Part shown: piece after piece, positions 17,151 through 64,000 of the stretch
Layout: the number at the start of each line of letters is the position of its first letter
How positions within the stretch are numbered: the first letter of the stretch is position 1
Origin: Calditrichia bacterium
Lineage (GTDB): Bacteria > Calditrichota > Calditrichia > JAJRVZ01
DNA: 64,000 bases
Assembly: GCA_963777955.1 (NCBI GenBank)
Contig: CAVZSQ010000019.1
Coordinates: forward strand, 256,001 to 320,000
Reading direction: 5' to 3'
The notes under the pieces: model-generated
The model's input: only the letters and a program-made list of their open reading frames with translations
Told to the model about the DNA's origin: nothing
Databases searched by the model: none
Translations under genes and position numbers: made by a program

Positions 17151-18665
17151 ATGGGCGATAAGGATGCAGCACGGATTTTGGTCGTAGAAGATCATGCAGA
17201 AATGCTGCAGGTCTTGAAGAAATTTCTGAGTGAACGCGGATTTGAGATTATTGAAGCAGAATCGGGGGAAATTGCTTTAAATCTGATCAACAAGACAAAA
17301 CCTGATATAATATTGTTGGATGTTATGTTACCTGGTATTTCGGGTATTGAGGTCACCCGGCAGGTCAGGACCAACGGATTCAGTGATAATTATATTCCGA
17401 TCATCATGCTGACCGCCAAGAGCGAAATTAAAGATGTGATCAGCGGTCTGGAGGTGGGTGCTGATGATTACATCATTAAGCCTTTCAGTTTCGATGAATT
17501 GATCGCCCGGGTAAACTCCGCGATCCGCATCAAGCGGCTTAATGATAATCTGCGCCTGAAGACGATTGAACTGGCGAATGCCAACCAGAAAATATACCAG
17601 TTGAATCAGGCTTTAATCGAGAAAAATAAAGAGTTACGGAAAAAAATCTATGACCTGCGCAATATTTTTGATATATCGCTGGAATTGCATTCCATACTGG
17701 ATGTAGATAGATTAATTAATTCGACCCTTTTGTCTTTGATTGGCAAGTTCAGTTGTAAAAGCGCTGTTTTTTTTCTATCGGCTAAAAGACATGAACACCG
17801 CCTGGCCGTGATCAATTCAAAAGGTCTATACAAATCAGAAACCGAAAACATGGTGATCCAGAAAAGCGATCCTTTGTTGACGCACCTGGCCGATCACCCC
17901 AATCCCATGCTGTTAAAGGATCTGCCGGTACCGATCAACAAATCGGCAGGTGTACAGGCCTTACAGAAAATTGGTATTGAACTGATCTCGCCTATCTCTT
18001 CTATTCATGAGGGGCAAAAGGCTTTGATCTGTCTGGGTCCGCGGGTCAATAATAATCCTTACACGGACAATGAGATAGAACTATTAATGACCGTCAACAA
18101 TATCGTTTCCATTGCACTCTCCAACGCTGCTCTGTATGATGAAGTCACGGAATTGTCCTATACCGATGGTATGACCGATCTGCATAATTACCGCTATTTT
18201 GAAATGCGTTTACGTGAAGAAGTATTACGGCATGCCCGTACCAAACAAGACGTATCCTTGATCATCATGGATGTGGATTTCTTTAAAAATTATAATGATA
18301 CTCTGGGCCATCAGGCCGGTGATATTGTGCTGAAGAAATTAGGCCATATCCTGAAAGAGACGGTTCGTGAGAACGATATTGTGGCCCGCTACGGCGGTGA
18401 AGAATTTGCCGTGATACTTCCGGGAGTGAGTAAAGAGGGAGTGATCATACTGGCCGAAAGGTTACGGGCCCGGGTGGAGGAAACAGATTTTCCCAATGAA
18501 GAGGTTCAACCTTCCGGCAGTTTGACCATCAGTGTGGGTACCGCTTCTCTGCCTTATGATGCCCAGGATAGTTCAAATTTAATCTACAAAGCAGATACCG
18601 CGTTGTATACTGCAAAACGCAGCGGTCGCAATCGCGTGGTTCAGTATAGTACCGATCTGAAATAG
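17151..18665 (+). CDS. Response-regulator diguanylate cyclase (REC - coiled coil - GAF-like - GGDEF)
   Basis: REC (VEDH, LLDVMLP, KPF); TDGMT.LHN, DVDFFKNYND..GH..GD, RxxD I-site RENDIVARYGGEEF, AD.ALY.AK.SGRN. Confidence 0.92.
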   Translation: MGDKDAARILVVEDHAEMLQVLKKFLSERGFEIIEAESGEIALNLINKTKPDIILLDVMLPGISGIEVTRQVRTNGFSDNYIPIIMLTAKSEIKDVISGLEVGADDYIIKPFSFDELIARVNSAIRIKRLNDNLRLKTIELANANQKIYQLNQALIEKNKELRKKIYDLRNIFDISLELHSILDVDRLINSTLLSLIGKFSCKSAVFFLSAKRHEHRLAVINSKGLYKSETENMVIQKSDPLLTHLADHPNPMLLKDLPVPINKSAGVQALQKIGIELISPISSIHEGQKALICLGPRVNNNPYTDNEIELLMTVNNIVSIALSNAALYDEVTELSYTDGMTDLHNYRYFEMRLREEVLRHARTKQDVSLIIMDVDFFKNYNDTLGHQAGDIVLKKLGHILKETVRENDIVARYGGEEFAVILPGVSKEGVIILAERLRARVEETDFPNEEVQPSGSLTISVGTASLPYDAQDSSNLIYKADTALYTAKRSGRNRVVQYSTDLK

Positions 18666-21084: not shown

Positions 21085-21429
21085 TTACACTCTGGAGAAA
21101 CTTTTAATTGCTGCTGCTGTGTTTTCATAGATATCAAAAACCTTATCCAGGCGCGTTATCTGGAATACGTAGCGGACCGCGGGCCGCAGCCCTGCCAGTT
21201 TGATATCGCCGTTGTTCATGCTGGCCTGTTTCAAGCCGGCCAGCAGAGAACTGAGGAATGAACTGTCGGTGAATTCAATCTGGCTCATATCAATGATGAC
21301 TTTTGTACTGCCTTCTTTTATAAGCTTGGTCAATTTTTCTTTAAGTAAGTCGGCCGTATCAACAGTGGCCCGCTTAATCTCTACACTGAAAATCAGGATA
21401 TCATCAAGCACTTCACTTTTGATGGTCAT
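21085..21429 (-). CDS. STAS domain anti-sigma factor antagonist
   Basis: VIIDMSQIEFTDSSFL with phosphorylatable Ser, and VFQITRLDKVF; GGAGG RBS. Confidence 0.88.
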   Translation of the reverse strand: MTIKSEVLDDILIFSVEIKRATVDTADLLKEKLTKLIKEGSTKVIIDMSQIEFTDSSFLSSLLAGLKQASMNNGDIKLAGLRPAVRYVFQITRLDKVFDIYENTAAAIKSFSRV

Positions 21430-23167: not shown

Positions 23168-23196
23168 AACTAAAAGGGCGGTTTAACAACCGCCCT
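23168..23196 (-). terminator. Rho-independent terminator of hup
   Basis: Minus strand AGGGCGGTT-gtta-AACCGCCCT then TTTAGTTTT, directly after the HU stop. Confidence 0.85.
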
Positions 23197-23201
23197 GATT
23201 A

Positions 23202-23475
23202 TTACCTGACTACGTCCTTCAGACCTTTTCCTGCTCTAAACACTGGTACTTTTCTGGCTGGAATTTTAATAGTAGCGCCGGTTTGAGGATTACGGCCCAT
23301 ACGCGCACTACGTTTACTTACATTAAATGTACCAAAACCAACCAAGCCGACACTATCACCTTTTTTCAATGCAGTCTTTTACTCCTTCCAAAAAACTGTC
23401 CAGTGATGCTTCTGCATCTTTCTTAGTCAGACCGGTTTTCTTGGACATATGATTCACTATCTCTTGTTTAGTCAT
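23202..23475 (-). CDS. hup: DNA-binding protein HU (absent from the ORF track; one extra base near 23377-23380)
   Basis: [32 protein letters not shown], then in +1 frame [58 protein letters not shown]. Span 274 nt = 90 aa + stop + 1; AAGGAGG RBS. Confidence 0.93.
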
Positions 23476-23699: not shown

Positions 23700-23885
23700 T
23701 TACTGGCGGCAGAAATCATCGCTATTTCTGATTTCGTTTTTAATAATTGAAGAAACCACTGTCTCCAGTACCTCGCTGCGATCATAAAATTTATTACGAA
23801 TGCGCAACTGAATTAATTCTATTTTTTCTTTCTCAAATTCTTTATTAACCGGAGCCAATTTTTTCCCCTTGATGTTCTCTTCCAT
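23700..23885 (-). CDS. Small FlgM-like anti-sigma28 candidate (61 aa)
   Basis: MEENIKGKKLAPVNKEFEKEKIELIQLRIRNKFYDRSEVLETVVSSII resembles the FlgM C-terminal EKV..LK..I..G.Y......IA..L helices; preceded by a sigma28-type promoter, two genes downstream of fliA. Confidence 0.6.
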   Translation of the reverse strand: MEENIKGKKLAPVNKEFEKEKIELIQLRIRNKFYDRSEVLETVVSSIIKNEIRNSDDFCRQ

Positions 23886-23911
23886 TCTCTCACCGCTTTC
23901 CTCTATGATAA

Positions 23912-23938
23912 TAGTCGGTTTGATCAGTAAGAACTTTA
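23912..23938 (-). promoter_or_regulatory. Sigma28 (FliA)-type promoter of the FlgM-like gene
   Basis: Minus strand TAAA-GTTCTTACTGATCAA(15)-ACCGACTA versus consensus TAAA-N15-GCCGATAA (extended TAAAGTTT); 26 nt upstream of ATG 23885. Confidence 0.7.
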
Positions 23939-24004
23939 TTAATGTTTCCGGTAAAAAGCATTTTGGCTGGAAACTGTACAACGGCAGGATGGCGGAACTG
24001 GCAG

Positions 24005-25153
24005 TTAAGAACGGGTCAGACTTTTCAGTTCTACAATAAAACGGTTACCGACCGGATTCTCTATGTCAAGCAACATTTTCCCTGCATGTGCATCGATAGC
24101 CATTTTGCAGAAAGTCAGTCCTAAAGCACGTTCCACGCGGTAACCCTTATTCTTTAATTCAACCTGGGAAAACTCATCAAATATTTTATCCTGGTATTTT
24201 TTAGGTATTTGGGTGCCATTATCATGTACGGTAAAACGGACACCATCGAGATCGATTTTTTCTGTTTTCAGCACCACCTGACCACCGTCTCCGACATTAT
24301 TTGTGGCGAAACTGATCAGGTTTTCTATTACCCGTTCTATTACCGACTGATCTAAAATCATTTCGTCCAGTTCCGGGTCAAGATTAAGTTGAACCATTTT
24401 GTTGGCATTTTCCGGATATTCGCGCACACGCTGAACGATATTGGTAATAATTGTATTAATTTTGGCCATATCCCGCTTCAGCGTAAGGGTGCCATCCTTG
24501 ATCCGTGAGATATCCAGCAGATTGACAACCATACGCAACAATTGCTGTACTCCGCGTTCGATCCGGTTGGAATATTTTTTTAAGTTATCTACCGACGTCG
24601 AACCTATGGTCATCTCCATCATCTGCAGATTCCCCTGGATGACGAACAGGGGATTCTTCATATCATGCACGATCAGATTCGTGAGGTCTTCCTTGAATTT
24701 ATCCATATGCAACAGCGTTTCATTCTTTTTAGCCAATTGCAGATTCTTTTCCTGCAATTCGTCATGATATTCTTTCAGGCGCAGCAACGACTTGACCCGG
24801 GCCAGTAATTCAACATTCTCAAACGGTTTGGAAATAAAATCATCCGCCCCGACATCCAGAGAATGTATTTTATCTTTCAGATCTTTCAAAGCGGTAATCA
24901 TGATGATCGGGATAAATTTTGTCCGCTGATCATTTTTTAACCGTTCACATACACCAAAACCGTCCAGTTTGGGCAACATAATATCCAGCAGGATGATCTG
25001 CGGATTTTGCCGAAAGGCAAGTTCCAATCCGCTTTCCCCGTCAGTTGCCGTGAAAATCTGATACCCCTGAGGTTTCAGGAAGTATAATAATAAATCCAGA
25101 TTCTCCTGGCTGTCTTCAATAATTAAAACTTTTTGCTTTTTGGATGCAGGCAT
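24005..25153 (-). CDS. Hybrid REC-HisKA-HATPase protein with degenerate ATP-binding boxes
   Basis: Intact REC (IEDS, LLDIMLP, SKP) and H-box LIVHDMKNPL; N-box ENLISFA, G1 DNGTQI and G2 ERALGL are degenerate. Confidence 0.85.
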   Translation of the reverse strand: MPASKKQKVLIIEDSQENLDLLLYFLKPQGYQIFTATDGESGLELAFRQNPQIILLDIMLPKLDGFGVCERLKNDQRTKFIPIIMITALKDLKDKIHSLDVGADDFISKPFENVELLARVKSLLRLKEYHDELQEKNLQLAKKNETLLHMDKFKEDLTNLIVHDMKNPLFVIQGNLQMMEMTIGSTSVDNLKKYSNRIERGVQQLLRMVVNLLDISRIKDGTLTLKRDMAKINTIITNIVQRVREYPENANKMVQLNLDPELDEMILDQSVIERVIENLISFATNNVGDGGQVVLKTEKIDLDGVRFTVHDNGTQIPKKYQDKIFDEFSQVELKNKGYRVERALGLTFCKMAIDAHAGKMLLDIENPVGNRFIVELKSLTRS

Positions 25154-25327
25154 AGCGCTAACCGGTTTTGTTTGTTCTTACGATTAATAAAATATAATAT
25201 AATCGTTCTTTTAATTCCAAACATTTTTATTTCGGTTAACACCACTCTGAAGTGGTACGGGATATATAAAATAAATAATGCAGTTATCTTAGATCAGATC
25301 CAGTTGTTCAGCTATCAGACGACCGGC

Positions 25328-26086
25328 TCAGGCATAAATCATTTTGTTGATTGATTTTTTCAGTTTACCCATCGTTTCAGAATGAATCTGCGAAATTCTT
25401 GATTCCGATACATTCAGTATCTGACCGATTTCTTTAAAGGTCAATTTTTCATAGTAGTAAAGGGTGATGGCCAGCCTGGTTTTCTCCGGTAATTGCTTTA
25501 TGGCTTTTAATAAAATTCGTTTCATTTCTTCCTCTTCCATTTTAAAATCGGGATTCTCTTCTTCTTCATCTTCGATCATATCGTAGAGATTTTGTTTATA
25601 GGTGTCATCAATAGGTTTATCTAAAGAAAGCATATTCACGCTGGTAATTTCCTTTTTCCAATTCTGTAATTCACTCATATCGATGCTCAGGCTTTTGGCG
25701 ATTTCCTGATCAGAATATGACCCGCCAAACTTCTGATCCAGTTCAACCATTTTTTCCTTAATCATGTTGGTTCGACTGCGCAGTGAACGCGGGATCCAAT
25801 CCAGTTTGCGTAATTCATCGATGATTGATCCTTTAATCCGCGGGATCGCATAGGTTTCAAACTTGATTCCATAATCCATATTAAATCGTTCCAGCGCTTC
25901 GACCAATCCCAGGATCCCAATATGATAAAGATCTTTTTCCTCGATAGCATGTGGAAAGTTTTTGATCATTTTGCGGACTACATATTTTACCAATCCAAGA
26001 TAACGCAGCACCAATTCCTGGCGCAACCGGGTGGTGGCGTTGGCTTTGTACATTTTCCAGAGTTGCATTGTAGTTAGATTTTTCAT
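25328..26086 (-). CDS. fliA: FliA/WhiG family (sigma28) RNA polymerase sigma factor
   Basis: GIKFETYAIPRIKGSIIDELRKLDWIPRS, LSLD, LYYYEKLTFKEIGQILNVSESRISQIHS. Start placed at ATG 26086 (GAGGG RBS); the ORF track uses 26101. Confidence 0.9.
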   Translation of the reverse strand: MKNLTTMQLWKMYKANATTRLRQELVLRYLGLVKYVVRKMIKNFPHAIEEKDLYHIGILGLVEALERFNMDYGIKFETYAIPRIKGSIIDELRKLDWIPRSLRSRTNMIKEKMVELDQKFGGSYSDQEIAKSLSIDMSELQNWKKEITSVNMLSLDKPIDDTYKQNLYDMIEDEEEENPDFKMEEEEMKRILLKAIKQLPEKTRLAITLYYYEKLTFKEIGQILNVSESRISQIHSETMGKLKKSINKMIYA

Positions 26087-26122
26087 GGGACCCTCGTTCA
26101 TTAATAGTGCGAATAAAATGGA

Positions 26123-26139
26123 TGCATTTTATATGCCAA
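26123..26139 (-). promoter_or_regulatory. Sigma54 (-24/-12) promoter upstream of fliA
   Basis: Minus strand TTGGCAT-ATAAA-ATGCA with exact GG-N10-GC spacing, ~37 nt upstream of ATG 26086. Confidence 0.7.
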
Positions 26140-26179
26140 TTTTTTTAAATTTTCGATTATTAGTTTATAACTTTATTAT

Positions 26180-26192
26180 TATCAATAAGATA
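26180..26192 (+). promoter_or_regulatory. IHF-like binding site
   Basis: TATCAAtaagATA, one mismatch to WATCAANNNNTTR, with an upstream A/T tract; lies between the sigma54 promoter and the palindrome. Confidence 0.35.
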
Positions 26193-26297
26193 TAAAAATA
26201 ACTAGCCTGCCGGTTACACTCTTAAATCACCGATTTCAAGTCCAAAATGCCTTGATTTTAAACACCTCAACTGACTGAAAATCGGACACTTGCTGGC

Positions 26298-26330
26298 CCA
26301 CCTTAAGGGTGCCATGCACCCTTAAGGTGG
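26298..26330. repeat. Perfect 15-bp inverted repeat with 3-nt spacer
   Basis: CCACCTTAAGGGTGC-cat-GCACCCTTAAGGTGG; each arm contains the palindrome CCTTAAGG. Confidence 0.95.
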
Positions 26331-26407
26331 TATGGTTTGGTATAAATTTTGATATGTATTTATGGAGGTTCAAACCATCGGAAAATCGTTAAATATGAGC
26401 AAACATT

Positions 26408-27132
26408 ATGCAGAAAAAGTTATATCAGCTAATCAATACTCTACTATTTCAACCCATACATTGATCTTTTCTTCCCTGCTCTGTGTTTTATTTGCGAAAA
26501 CCGTTTGGAAAGTAATCGTAAAATTGTTTGTATTCACTGTTTAAAGCAAATCCCTGGATCTGATCCGGCAGCAAATGCTCCCTTTCCCGATAAAAAATTT
26601 AATCAGGCTTTTATTCTGTACAATTTTAATGAAAGTGTCCGCCTGCTTGTTCATCTGTTAAAATATAAAGGTTACTTTACGCTGGCGGATTACTTTGCCG
26701 ACGCTATCGTGCAATCATTCCCCCGGTTGTTGAATACCAATTATGATTATATCCTGCCTGTACCTTTGCATCAAACACGGTTACGGGAAAGAGGTTTTAA
26801 TCAAAGCGCTATACTGGCAGCCGCCATCGGCAAGGAAACTGGGCCGGGCCATGTCTGAAAATATTCTGACCCGCCGGCGTAATACTCCTTCCCAGACTCA
26901 TTTGAACCGAACTCAGCGGCTGCGGAATGTTAGTGATGCTTTTTATTGCCAGGCTATCCGTTCAGATGCCCGTATTCTGATCATAGATGATGTCATTACC
27001 ACCGGTAGTACGGTTAACGCCTGTTGTCAGGCTATGCGGCAGGCCGGAGCTGCCGAGATCGATGTACTGGCCCTGGCGCATCCAGCAGCGACTGCAGCGC
27101 ATGATTTAATCAGCAATGCAGAAATTATCTAA
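26408..27132 (+). CDS. comF: ComF family phosphoribosyltransferase-like protein (two apparent frameshifts, ~26457 and ~26845)
   Basis: FFPALCFIC..CIHC zinc ribbon, LKY, PVPLH..RLRERGFNQS, SQTHL..R.RNV..AF, IIDDVITTGST. Confidence 0.85.
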
Positions 27133-36864: not shown

Positions 36865-38340
36865 TCATAGTTTCTTTCTAAGTCTGGCCACGGGAATATT
36901 CAGTTGCTCGCGGTATTTTGCCACTGTACGCCGGGCTACCGGAAAACCTTCACTCAGCAGGATTGCCGAAATTTTTTCATCGCTCAACGGCTTTTTGGGA
37001 CTCTCTTTTTCAATCATTTCCAGAATACGATTTTTAATCCGCCTCGTGGAAATTTCCTCCCCGCTGTCGGTTTCAATTTTTTCGTTGAAAAAATATTTCA
37101 ACTCAAAAACACCGTAATCGGTCTGAACATATTTGCCATTGACCACCCGGCTGATAGTCGATATATCCATATTGATCATTTCGGCAATTTCACGCATGAT
37201 CAGCGGCTTGATATGTTCCGGACCTCTGGCAAAAAAATCGTATTGCCGCTGCAGAATCGAACGCATCACATTAAGCATAGTGATTTTACGCTGATAAATG
37301 GAAGTAATAAACCAGCGGGCTGACTCAATTTTTTTGCGGATATATTGCTTGGTCTCTTTATCGATTTTATTGCGGCTGCGCAGCAGATCCTTATAGGTTT
37401 TATTAATACGCAGGGGGGGTATATTCCAATCGTGGAGAGTAACCACAAACTCATTATCCACCTTTTCTACCAGGAAATCCGGGACAATGTAATTATGCTT
37501 GCTGTTGTAGATCCCCTCGCCAGGTTTGGGATTGAGCCGGCCGATATATTCGCTGGCTCCGCGCAGCGCCGCTTCGTCGATATTCAAATCAGCGACAATT
37601 TTATCATAGCGTTTGTTTTTAAAATCATCGAAATGCCGGTCGATAATGGTCAGTGCCAGTTCCGGCCGGTCTTCAGCGGCCTGCACCTGCACCAGCAGGC
37701 ACTCCCGCAGATTCCGGGCAGCGATACCGACCGGATCAAAAAATTGAATTTTCTTCAGGACCGTCTCGACCATTTTTTCGGTGCAGTCAAAAATATTAGC
37801 CACATTTTCCACGGTCACCACTTCATCCAGATAACCGTCATCCCGCAGATTGAGGATCAGATATTCGCCTATTTTTTGCTCGAGAGGATCCAGTGATATA
37901 AAATTCAATTGCTCCAGCAGGTGATCGGTCATGGTTTCGGTCACAATTTCCGGACGTTCATAATCTTCTTCATTCTTGTCCCGCGGCAACCGGATTTCAT
38001 AAGAATCCTCGTCATTGATTATATTATCCCAATCGGCATCCTCCTGTGCAGCCGCAAGTTCCTTTACGTCCAGATCGGTCTTATCTTTCTGCGAGTCGGT
38101 TAATTCTATTTCCTTACGTACTTCATTCTCTTCTTCGCTGACAGGATCGCTTGACTCGCCTGCCTCAGCAGGCTGCTCCGCTTCCTCTTCCAGCCCTTCT
38201 TCCAGTACCGGATTCATCTCCAGTTCATTCTGGATTTTTTGTTCCAAATTGAGGATAGGCAATTGCAGCAGGGTCGACAACAGTATTTGTTGCGGCGAAA
38301 GGCGCTGCTCCAGGCGCATTGTTTGAGATAATTGTACCAT
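36865..38340 (-). CDS. rpoN: RNA polymerase sigma-54 factor
   Basis: Q/L-rich region I, NPVLE, DPVGIAAR, STISR, RpoN box ARRTVAKYRE. Confidence 0.97.
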   Translation of the reverse strand: MVQLSQTMRLEQRLSPQQILLSTLLQLPILNLEQKIQNELEMNPVLEEGLEEEAEQPAEAGESSDPVSEEENEVRKEIELTDSQKDKTDLDVKELAAAQEDADWDNIINDEDSYEIRLPRDKNEEDYERPEIVTETMTDHLLEQLNFISLDPLEQKIGEYLILNLRDDGYLDEVVTVENVANIFDCTEKMVETVLKKIQFFDPVGIAARNLRECLLVQVQAAEDRPELALTIIDRHFDDFKNKRYDKIVADLNIDEAALRGASEYIGRLNPKPGEGIYNSKHNYIVPDFLVEKVDNEFVVTLHDWNIPPLRINKTYKDLLRSRNKIDKETKQYIRKKIESARWFITSIYQRKITMLNVMRSILQRQYDFFARGPEHIKPLIMREIAEMINMDISTISRVVNGKYVQTDYGVFELKYFFNEKIETDSGEEISTRRIKNRILEMIEKESPKKPLSDEKISAILLSEGFPVARRTVAKYREQLNIPVARLRKKL

Positions 38341-62024: not shown

Positions 62025-64000
62025 TCAGGTTCCCTGCTTAACCGGTACCAGACTCAGACTGGATGCTGCCTTCAGATTATTTTTTTCTCTGGAGAGCGGC
62101 ACATTCCAGACTTCTCCTTTTTCCCAGCGGTCATAGAAATCGAAGAAATGGGGACTCACCGGATTTCCCGATTGCCCGGCCGGCAACATGATGGAATTGG
62201 CATCTTTATCACTGAAGTCGAATACCAACCGTGCACTTGGTCCGCCGACCGCCGAGAATTTTCCATTCGCCAGACGCAGAGAGGTAGTAGCGTTGAGTGT
62301 TCCCGGCGATCCGCCCCGTGCAAACGGGCCGCGCCGCAGATCGAATAATTGGGAGATTAATGGTATTTCAGCCAGGGGATGTCCCGGTGCTAACTGCTGC
62401 AGATCACCCCAATTTTTGTTTTTAACCTGCTGCAGGGTTAACTGCATGGCTTTTTGCGCGATATCCTCCCTGCTCTCCAGACGATCGCTGGTATTTTGAT
62501 CATCAAACCATTTTTGATCACCTTGAAAGTAGAGATACTCCATAACATAATCACGGAAAAGAATCCGGTTGTTAAATACACCGGCCAGTTCCTGGAACTC
62601 ATCAGCAAAGGTTAATTGTTTTAAGTTAGCCAACCAGGTCTCCACAATACAGGCAGCCGTTGAATCTGCGGACATCTGCCCTGCCCAATTTTCAATAATC
62701 CCGGCTTCGCTGCCGGCTCCCAGGTTTTGCAGGATCCTGATAATTTCCGTTTTCCAGCGTAATGCAGAGGGGGAAATTATATCCAACTGAAATTCCGTCA
62801 TATCTGCCGCAGTCAGATTATTCCGGGAATTTAATAATTCTGTAATTCTTAGTATGCGATCTTCGGCAAAATTTCCGGGTAGCAGTGAATCTCCGATTTG
62901 TCCCGGTTGGTTGTTGCAGGTAGCCAACCAGCCCTGCAGTGAATTATAGGCACCGGGAGTCTGCTCGGACGGATAATAACCCTGCCAGCTATATTGATCA
63001 TCCCAGCCCGGTAGCTGGACTTGCTTGCTGTTTCCCTGGCGGATCGGCACTGGTGTACCCAGTCTGATAGCCGGTATTACCCAGCGCATCAGCATAGACC
63101 CAATTTGCATTCAGAGCACCAAAATTTGTGATCAATTTTCTGAAGTTTTTAAAACTGGCAACCCAGGCCAGATCGAAAGCCGCTCTGATGCCCCGGCTGA
63201 TCGGGCAATCGAATCCTGCCCAGTACAAACAGGTAGCCTGTTGTAAAGAATCGTTTTCGATCATAACCGGCCCATGCCTGCCGATTTTTACCAGTAACGT
63301 ATCGGCGCCCGCACGTCCTTTGACCAGAATGATTTCTTTAATCAGTTCAAATTTTTGCCAACCAGCGCTGGCCTGATATTGCTGCGCATCATCTTTTGTC
63401 CGCTCAAGATAATAATCGGTGATGTCGACTCCACCGGCCGTGAAAGCCCAGGCAGCATGACTATTGCGGCCGTAGACAACGTAGGGCAGTCCCGGTGTGG
63501 TTAAACCCAGCACGTCCAGCGAATCCTGCTGTGCATGAATCCCGACGGCGTACCAGAATTGCGGCAGCATCGAAATATCAAGATGGGGATCACTGGCCAG
63601 CATAGCCGCACCTTTTTGGGTTTTGTGCGGGGCCACTACCCAGGCATTGGAAGAATGGGCCATGGTACCGGGTACAGTTTCAAACGACCAGTCTGGGAAA
63701 GGAATAATAAAGTCTCTGATACGTTCAACCGAAGATTTTTTCAGCAGTTCCAGGTAGAAATCATCCGGGGTTTGTAATGTGTGCGAATACCAGGTCTGAT
63801 AACTGAAGATACTCAGGCAATCCGTAAGAGTCCAGGGTTCAAAATCACAGCGCAGCAGGTGATATTCGAAAGGTAATGTCCTCAAACTCTGCACTCCGCT
63901 GTTTATTCCATCCACGTAGGCCTGGAGTTTCAGTCTACTCTGTTCATCCAGTTGAGCAAGTTCCGCTTCAGCCATGCGCCTATGCCCGATTTTTCGCTGC
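62025..64000 (-). CDS. Penicillin acylase family Ntn-hydrolase, 5' end outside the window (apparent frameshift near 63063)
   Basis: SNAWVV beta-chain start, SDPHL, N.VYAD..GN.GY, TCNN, R..RI..LL, PAGQSGNP.SPHF.D. Confidence 0.88.

Follow-up and report, generated by a model that had tools for sequence, protein, structure and literature searches.

A 64,000-nucleotide (nt) stretch of a Calditrichia bacterium genome (assembly GCA_963777955.1, contig CAVZSQ010000019.1, positions 256,001 to 320,000; hereafter the window) carries, in one direction, genes for a FliA/WhiG-family sigma factor (σ28), for a hybrid histidine kinase with broken ATP boxes and for a 61-amino-acid (aa) protein related to the anti-sigma factor FlgM. 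We lean towards the view that this flagellar-descended σ28/FlgM pair is kept without flagella as a negative-feedback switch, in which σ54-driven synthesis of the sigma factor outruns a mini-FlgM that is not exported and in which the targets are a few non-flagellar genes. The cassette occurs in most Calditrichota genomes examined, flagellated or not, and likely switches non-flagellar genes such as that of a DNA-bending protein. FlgM is normally meaningful only together with the flagellar export gate. That σ28 and its own shortened FlgM were kept through several flagellar losses poses the question of how FlgM inhibition is lifted without export. The stages are visible in living genomes as an intact flagellar operon, a post-loss remnant and a condensed cassette beside a second flagellar system, and the case shows the co-option of a sigma/anti-sigma pair and how two σ28 paralogues may stay insulated from each other.

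The cassette is present with and without flagella

An earlier interpretation of the window from its letters alone (the sequence-only reading) had placed a σ54 promoter, the sigma gene, a REC-HisKA gene, a σ28 promoter and the 61-aa open reading frame (ORF) on the minus strand, and all five were found at those places. Its statement that the 64 kb hold no flagellar, chemotaxis or type III secretion system (T3SS) gene also stood, as none of these families matched among the window ORFs scanned (57 + 8). In the genome under study, which is 91.8% complete, FlhA, flagellin and rod profiles gave no match and the flagellar structural ORFs from relatives' loci had no tblastn counterpart; no flagellar structural gene that could serve as a target was found in the same genome. 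The cassette sigma is the only sigma factor of this genome above the FliA/WhiG cut-off. The possibility that would have refuted the earlier reading, a pair serving a complete flagellum encoded elsewhere, was not borne out.

A search with the sigma factor returned 43 loci, of which the closest 36 and L038 belong to Calditrichota or lower ranks (G, L and f numbers denote genomes, loci and families, respectively, with G000 being the genome under study). As read, 52 of 86 genomes of the phylum gave a strong FlhA match, and four further genomes gave weak matches in long ORFs only. Weak FHIPEP-family matches in G053, G057, G058 and G059 (non-flagellated f7) lie in ORFs of ~500-1800 aa that form tandem pairs and are not FlhA. 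Nine of the ten genomes of f1, the family of the genome under study, are non-flagellated, and no flagellar genes were found in eight of the nine other f1 genomes. Caldithrix abyssi, for which a full flagellar gene set is reported (PMC5317091), carries the cassette as well (L013).

Of the 49 f1-f5 genomes, 45 contained the kinase and mini-flgM genes and 43 the sigma gene; four fragmented assemblies had none of the three. The kinase and mini-flgM were present in 18/19 of these genomes without flhA and in 27/30 with flhA, and by these counts the presence of the cassette is independent of flagella. A second FliA, encoded beside flhA and distant from the cassette, was found in 28 of the 30 flagellated f1-f5 genomes, the other two (G010 and G012) showing only the cassette FliA; where read, flagellated f1-f5 genomes also have an FlgM of full length, and this second pair uses a different −35 element. 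The lineage of sigma factors to which the cassette sigma belongs (W, described below) was kept in 30 of 34 genomes without flhA, in several lineages. The 15 non-flagellated f7/f8 genomes included 13 with a W sigma and 13 with an FlgM-like gene that, where read, encodes 80-98 aa and lies in a remnant consisting of fliW, an ORF resembling sigma region 4 only and flgM, often then followed by hup.

No T2SSE-family ATPase (type II secretion system or pilus) scored above the cut-off in the genome under study. This genome, in which neither flagella nor a pilus ATPase was found, has a chemosensory-like cluster (G000:C13:176508-187817, L185) encoding ParA-like, REC, CheW, methyl-accepting chemotaxis, three Hpt and CheA-CheW-REC proteins. 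At G000:C22:886629-888760 (L196), a MotA/TolQ/ExbB gene is followed by two ExbD-like genes, an arrangement that resembles a gliding-type motor.

Both promoters of the cassette are conserved

The sigma factor scored 249 bits against TIGR02479 (FliA/WhiG; cut-off 189.6) and matched the Pfam families of regions 2, 3 and 4. It is 63-78% identical across families, with an almost invariant region 4. TGGCA-N7-TGC was present within 150 nt upstream of the sigma gene in 35/35 cassette loci with enough flank, a count made with a pattern that was relaxed after the sequences had been viewed; the first, stricter pattern was present in 17/41 loci, compared with 0.09 expected from shuffles. As required for a σ54-dependent promoter, the GG-N10-GC element is accompanied by rpoN, located in the window at 36865-38340, and by 17 strong matches to the σ54-activator domain in the genome. 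The consensus of integration host factor (IHF) sites is WATCAANNNNTTR. IHF-like sites with at most one mismatch, at most 90 nt upstream of the σ54 element, were found in 25/36 cassette loci versus 11.7 expected from base shuffles.

FliA/WhiG σ28 promoters are of the consensus type TAAA-N15-GCCGATAA. TAAAG-N15-CCGA was found between the kinase gene and the small ORF in 30/30 relatives' loci that contain both, and it is conserved ahead of cognate flgM and W flagellins; its recognition by the cassette sigma is predicted. Both promoter elements stand above chance, and the comparison supports a conserved, repurposed σ28/FlgM loop under putative σ54 control.

The small protein corresponds to the C-terminal half of FlgM

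The sequence-only reading had called the 61-aa protein FlgM-like. This identity stood, on evidence from relatives and not from the protein's own sequence alone. The ORF itself matched no Pfam or NCBIfam family, the FlgM profile PF04316 missed it in its own genome, and neither the protein nor its family profile gave a usable direct match to PDB sequences. PF04316 matched only 4/28 members of the small-protein family (best E 2.6e-4, below the cut-off). In many flagellated genomes, the positions retrieved by the family profile coincided with those of PF04316 matches; where read, they were the last gene of fliS-fliD-flaG-flgN-flgM operons, the gene names being read from translations. In addition, hhalign gave 94% against one flagellar FlgM that passes the PF04316 cut-off.

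In the alignment, ~40 N-terminal residues of W-type flagellar FlgM have no counterpart in the cassette proteins (51-66 aa), and what the 61-aa ORF encodes is thus FlgM's C-terminal half. This half of FlgM is the part that binds sigma region 4. The full N-terminal region that accompanies export by the flagellar T3SS is gone, and FlhA was not found in the genome. Flagellar export signals are N-terminal (PMC3372961), and FlgM wraps around sigma regions 2 and 4 (PMC4598750).

When the sigma factor and mini-FlgM were modelled as a complex, a check that had been proposed with the sequence-only reading, the score was 0.76 and the best of three controls reached 0.17. The mark used in this modelling was reached by 116/157 solved pairs and 2/215 mismatched pairs. 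Contact agreement between runs was at least 51%, the predicted local distance difference test (pLDDT) value of the partner was at least 61, and a confident interface was formed only on sigma residues 190-251. The model thus predicts binding of mini-FlgM to sigma region 4. Since a σ28/FlgM structure has already been solved, it shows likeness and not binding.

The small ORF was found in 30/37 relatives' cassette loci, and five of the other seven loci end too early. In L007 and L028, neither mini-flgM nor its promoter lies directly behind the kinase gene; in the complete genome G006 the gene is located ~600 nt farther.

The cassette kinase has lost residues for ATP binding

The N-box Asn and the DxGxG motif of the G1 box serve ATP binding in active hybrid histidine kinases. 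In all 48 homologues of the cassette kinase the N-box Asn is replaced by Phe or Tyr (Phe in the window copy) and the second G1 Gly is missing, whereas at the aligned positions the other kinases of the same genome have the Asn in 7/8 and the Gly in 8/8. The REC Asp is kept in 48/48 (Asp57 in the window copy) and the phospho-accepting His in 47/48 (His163). Thus, the His and Asp of an active kinase are present and its N-box Asn and second G1 Gly are not, and from this residue pattern the kinase is predicted to be unable to bind ATP. The G2 box is broken in the window copy and intact (GxGLG) in many relatives; of the broken ATP boxes described by the sequence-only reading, the N-box and G1 losses therefore hold throughout and the G2 loss does not.

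The kinase model had a mean pLDDT of 85, and a fold search matched LvrB (top), DivL and HK853 (8vc9 and 4q20 among the matches). The protein collection contained at least 356 relatives, with generic names only among the 120 matches listed. The gene follows the sigma gene in 37/37 relatives' cassette loci, and the trio, whose conservation in relatives had been named as a check of the sequence-only reading, is conserved.

The same pseudokinase lies behind fliA in intact W flagellar operons of f6-f8, together with full-length FlgM, and predates flagellar loss. Five f7 genomes without flagella (G053 and G057-G060, 83-97% complete) yielded no copy of it, although all five keep a short flgM and four keep the sigma gene too. 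Its presence in intact flagellar operons and the failure to find it in these five genomes argue against the role of an obligatory releaser. The earlier proposal that this signalling protein releases the sigma was not supported by any test.

The cassette descends from a flagellar regulon

In a quick tree of 83 rows, Calditrichota FliA proteins fell into group W, which unites the cassette sigmas with FliA from f6-f8, and group F. The cassette sigma grouped with flagellar FliA of f6-f8 with support of 98-99 in the Shimodaira-Hasegawa-like approximate likelihood ratio test (SH-aLRT), and its grouping with the flagellar (F) FliA of f1-f4 was rejected by the approximately unbiased (AU) test (p = 0.008, 22 rows). 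Group F, ~30% identical, is encoded beside flhA in the 28 flagellated f1-f5 genomes with a second FliA and in G067, G068 and G075. An FlhA tree (22 rows) split likewise, with f7 genomes on both sides.

In flagellated f6-f8 genomes, the W sigma gene ends the series flhA-flhF-flhG-orf-fliA; behind it come genes for a GAF kinase, intact or degenerate, for a TPR protein, in some genomes for an HDOD protein, and for the pseudokinase. TAAAG-N15-xCGA was present at 18/23 W flagellins and 0/20 F flagellins, and TTAAR-N15-xCGA at 13/20 F flagellins, both patterns having been derived from the same sequences in which they were counted. The W motif preceded 8/8 short and 4/4 full-length W flgM genes and 0/5 F flgM genes (one with a short flank). 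Given the sigma tree, the operon position and the shared motif, the most plausible view is that the ancestor of f1-f5 condensed the regulatory core of the W flagellar system into the cassette. By this comparison, all three cassette genes are descendants of a flagellar regulon that is still intact in f6-f8.

Phylum-wide comparison (L044-L063 with L084-L103) points to two flagellar systems, W and F, with a similar gene order, ~52% FlhA identity and different σ28 −35 elements. No genome examined showed both structural gene sets together. W flagellar clusters contain, after fliW-csrA, an 85-aa protein resembling sigma region 4 only, which f7/f8 genomes that have lost flagella retain, together with fliW, next to short flgM and which could be an FlgM decoy (anti-anti-sigma). 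This putative decoy, FliW, CsrA and HDOD were not found by tblastn in the genome under study.

The predicted regulon is small and non-flagellar

A small regulon is predicted that comprises an IHF/HU-like nucleoid protein, a TonB-domain protein and a cyclic di-GMP (c-di-GMP) phosphodiesterase. Five candidate targets were tested in orthologues and these three held. The IHF/HU-like gene (C18:126631 in the genome under study) is present in 84/86 genomes, and its product scores below the IHF equivalog cut-offs. Fifty-two loci of this gene were read, five of which were left out for short flank. In f1-f5 the motif occurred with a 15-nt spacer in 17/36 loci (in 15 of the 17 at 159-204 nt upstream), with a 16-nt spacer in 4, including the genome under study, with an 11-nt spacer in 2 and with seven other spacers in none. 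In f6-f8 it occurred in 0/11.

The beta-helix/TonB-C gene, read in 30 of the 82 genomes that have it, showed the site in 6/10 f1 genomes and 0/20 others, and follows a CheA-like gene in 29/30 loci. The third target, encoding a REC-GGDEF(degenerate)-EAL protein, had three exact and two one-mismatch sites in nine f1 genomes. A site ahead of a secreted-protein gene was common to the genome under study and G041 only. The top-scoring site of the first motif scan, C3:115608, lies inside a coding region and was set aside. Type IV pili, considered by analogy with WhiG, were rejected as a target, as no T2SSE-family ATPase scored above the cut-off in this genome.

Discussion

Sequence comparison demonstrates the gene identities, the linkage, the conserved promoter elements, the descent and the independence from flagella. 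If the pair acts as a negative-feedback switch, a σ54 activator, probably with IHF, would transcribe fliA and the pseudokinase gene, an activity predicted from the conserved promoter. Free σ28 would transcribe mini-flgM; mini-FlgM, by its predicted capping of sigma region 4, would then set a threshold and end the response. No export apparatus was found, and hook-coupled export therefore cannot relieve FlgM inhibition here; release would come from an excess of new sigma together with turnover of FlgM. A related process, FlgM-modulated proteolysis of FliA, exists elsewhere (PMC6598108). The outputs would be the IHF/HU-like nucleoid protein across f1-f5 and, in f1, also the beta-helix/TonB-C protein encoded behind the chemosensory-like cluster and the REC-GGDEF(degenerate)-EAL phosphodiesterase. 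The pseudokinase, which was inherited from the flagellar operon and keeps its phospho-accepting Asp and His, would most likely tune the circuit as a relay or sink dependent on phosphorylation. The central proposal of the sequence-only reading, a repurposed σ28/FlgM loop under σ54 with a release that is not hook-coupled export, is supported to this extent.

Several points weigh against the switch. That release comes about by titration or turnover is an inference only. The trees were made in quick mode and have long branches, and the groups compared in the AU test were named after the first tree had been viewed. The predictor may have memorised the solved σ28/FlgM structure, which would explain the complex score. 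A genome-wide scan for the W motif, suggested with the sequence-only reading, gave no excess over reversed-pattern controls (51 vs 55, 36 vs 56 and 51 vs 91), and upstream of genes of the genome under study the excess was weak (18 vs 3-8 and 11 vs 0-11 in controls), which indicates that the regulon is small. Targets were picked after scanning, and two of them failed: the site was present in 0/3 orthologues of the RimK-like gene C26:82741, and was missing from the G041 orthologue of the GAF-Hpt kinase gene C3:184146. At the IHF/HU-like gene, the site has a 16-nt spacer here, is degenerate in G043, a genome of the same genus, and is missing from 6/9 f1 genomes read.

Among alternative explanations, we consider it unlikely that the pseudokinase is itself the releasing factor (anti-anti-sigma), binding mini-FlgM or the sigma in one phosphorylation state. 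It does lie between the sigma gene and flgM in every cassette locus with enough flank, is among the few genes that survived the loss of those for the GAF kinase, the HDOD protein and the TPR protein, which follow fliA in f6-f8, and has a conserved pattern of lost (N-box and G1) and kept (REC Asp and His) residues; moreover, DivL exemplifies a kinase fold that works as a sensor by binding (PMC4211667), and LvrB, the top fold match, shares the architecture and passes its signal to an anti-sigma (PMC13269768). However, LvrB is an active kinase with an RsbW-type target rather than FlgM, and both the intact W operons, where the pseudokinase accompanies full-length FlgM, and the five f7 genomes, where short flgM persists without a detectable pseudokinase, speak against this role. 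Similarly doubtful is a pulse or differentiation switch, in which σ54 with IHF would drive σ28, σ28 would drive both the IHF-like protein (positive) and mini-FlgM (negative), and a conserved REC-gated pseudokinase would replace export and free the sigma; if true, a free-living phylum would have a Chlamydia-like programme involving the nucleoid and c-di-GMP, with the changed −35 element insulating it from the second flagellar sigma. Less likely again is partner switching by a factor encoded elsewhere, such as an HsbA-like STAS protein or, in f6-f8, the sigma-region-4 decoy. In Pseudomonas aeruginosa HsbA binds FlgM and frees FliA (PMC6482189), a STAS ORF above the TIGR00377 cut-off lies in the window at 21085-21429 and is linked to the cassette in six relatives' loci, and sigma-region-4-only ORFs adjoin fliW and short flgM in non-flagellated f7/f8. 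Yet the STAS linkage was seen only where hup flanks the cassette too, with hup and dacB separating the two, and no sigma-region-4-only ORF was found in the genome under study.

That the cassette is a slowly decaying remnant with its own flgM as the sole real target would fit the missing genome-wide motif excess and the patchy targets among genomes, but it is very improbable given the 63-78% identity of the sigma across families with its almost invariant region 4, the conservation of both promoters while the spacers diverge, and the retention of the W sigma in most genomes without flhA. We give least credence to an ordinary fliA/flgM pair whose flagellum was missed by the assembly, or which transcribes the flagellins of flagellated relatives. 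The genome is not fully complete, and G010 and G012 show the cassette FliA only; nevertheless, no flhA, flagellin, rod or other structural match was obtained here or in 8/9 f1 relatives, the other 28 flagellated f1-f5 genomes have their own FliA, and the W motif is on none of the 20 F flagellins.

The cassette belongs to a known theme of non-flagellar σ28 factors. With the flagellar FliA/FlgM checkpoint (Salmonella, Vibrio and the Aquifex structure) it shares a FliA-family sigma, a σ28 promoter before flgM, the order of σ54 above σ28 and, by prediction, the FlgM C-terminal motif on sigma region 4, and its f6-f8 orthologues are still flagellar. It differs from this checkpoint in that no export apparatus was found, FlgM is cut to 51-66 aa, the genes have been condensed into a single cassette that includes a pseudokinase, the predicted targets are non-flagellar, and it coexists with a second flagellar pair that uses another −35 element. 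In Chlamydia trachomatis a non-flagellar σ28 depends on σ54 and has a tiny regulon, hctB and tsp, that includes a nucleoid protein (PMC10597470), and the regulon predicted here, likewise small and likewise with a nucleoid protein, parallels it. In Chlamydia, however, the anti-sigma is only hypothesised and the action of σ54 on σ28 is indirect, whereas the Calditrichota cassette, from a free-living phylum, combines an FlgM homologue, a direct predicted σ54 site and a pseudokinase.

In the actinobacterial WhiG/RsiG system (PMC12871210), a single phylum likewise contains a flagellar and a repurposed σ28 clade, and c-di-GMP enzymes are targeted; there RsiG, which is no relative of FlgM, holds WhiG2 together with c-di-GMP. 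In the cassette FlgM itself is kept, in shortened form, and no RsiG was encountered, without a separate search for it. The P. aeruginosa HsbA-FlgM-FliA system can be likened to the cassette by analogy, in its export-independent release of FliA and phosphorelay control, but it has a flagellar regulon and acts through a STAS protein and HsbR (PMC6482189). As for the kinase, LvrB of Leptospira has a similar REC-DHp-CA architecture but binds ATP and phosphorylates LvrC (PMC13269768), and DivL of Caulobacter has a kinase fold with lost catalysis, as predicted here, but has no His (PMC4211667). Unlike both, the cassette kinase has retained its His and Asp while its N-box and G1 residues are gone. 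No account of the cassette was found in the literature searched, although supplements and subscription journals could mention its genes, and the available part of PMC13063649 does not describe the retention of a fliA/flgM pair after flagellar loss. Relative to known non-flagellar σ28 systems, what is new is that FlgM itself persists in shortened form, in one package with a conserved pseudokinase and alongside a second flagellar pair.

Locus layout and neighbouring genes

The coordinates of the cassette and related features are listed in Table 1.

Table 1. Features of the cassette in the window, and sigma-region-4-only ORFs of relatives (positions within the locus named)
Feature	Position	Strand	Description
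σ54 −24/−12 element	26123..26139	-	TTGGCA-N7-TGCA (GG-N10-GC)
FliA/WhiG-family σ28, W lineage, 257 aa	25328..26101	-	profile match, trees, regions 2 and 4 conserved
REC-DHp-CA hybrid kinase, 382 aa	24005..25153	-	REC-HisKA-HATPase_c profiles
σ28 promoter, W type	23912..23938	-	TAAA-N15-ACCGACTA, preceding mini-flgM
mini-FlgM ORF, 61 aa	23700..23885	-	C-terminal half of FlgM, via relatives
hup (HU)	23202..23473	-	one-base insertion near 23375, from comparison with L001
IHF-like site, predicted	26180..26192	+	one mismatch to the consensus WATCAANNNNTTR; ~45-55 nt upstream of the σ54 element
sigma region-4-only ORF	L104:14245-14553
sigma region-4-only ORF	L105:3436-3693
sigma region-4-only ORF	L072:2489-2752
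sigma region-4-only ORF	L070:2216-2479

The sequence-only reading correctly named hup and comF (26505-27132) as the flanks of the cassette. Each contains a one-base insertion relative to L001, the closest relative, and these insertions are probably assembly errors. The penicillin amidase gene (62025-63975) is also split over two frames, and from these three genes the assembly seems to contain insertion or deletion errors. The linkage of flgM and hup is present in f7/f8 also. No terminator-like site was found between mini-flgM and hup, and one was found at 23175-23196; read-through from the cassette σ28 promoter into hup is possible. A 15-bp perfect inverted repeat (26298-26330) lies between the divergent comF and fliA. 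The STAS anti-sigma-antagonist ORF runs in the same direction as the cassette, downstream of hup and dacB, and a REC-GGDEF diguanylate cyclase gene at 17151-18665, 5 kb from the cassette, may be of relevance to the predicted phosphodiesterase target.

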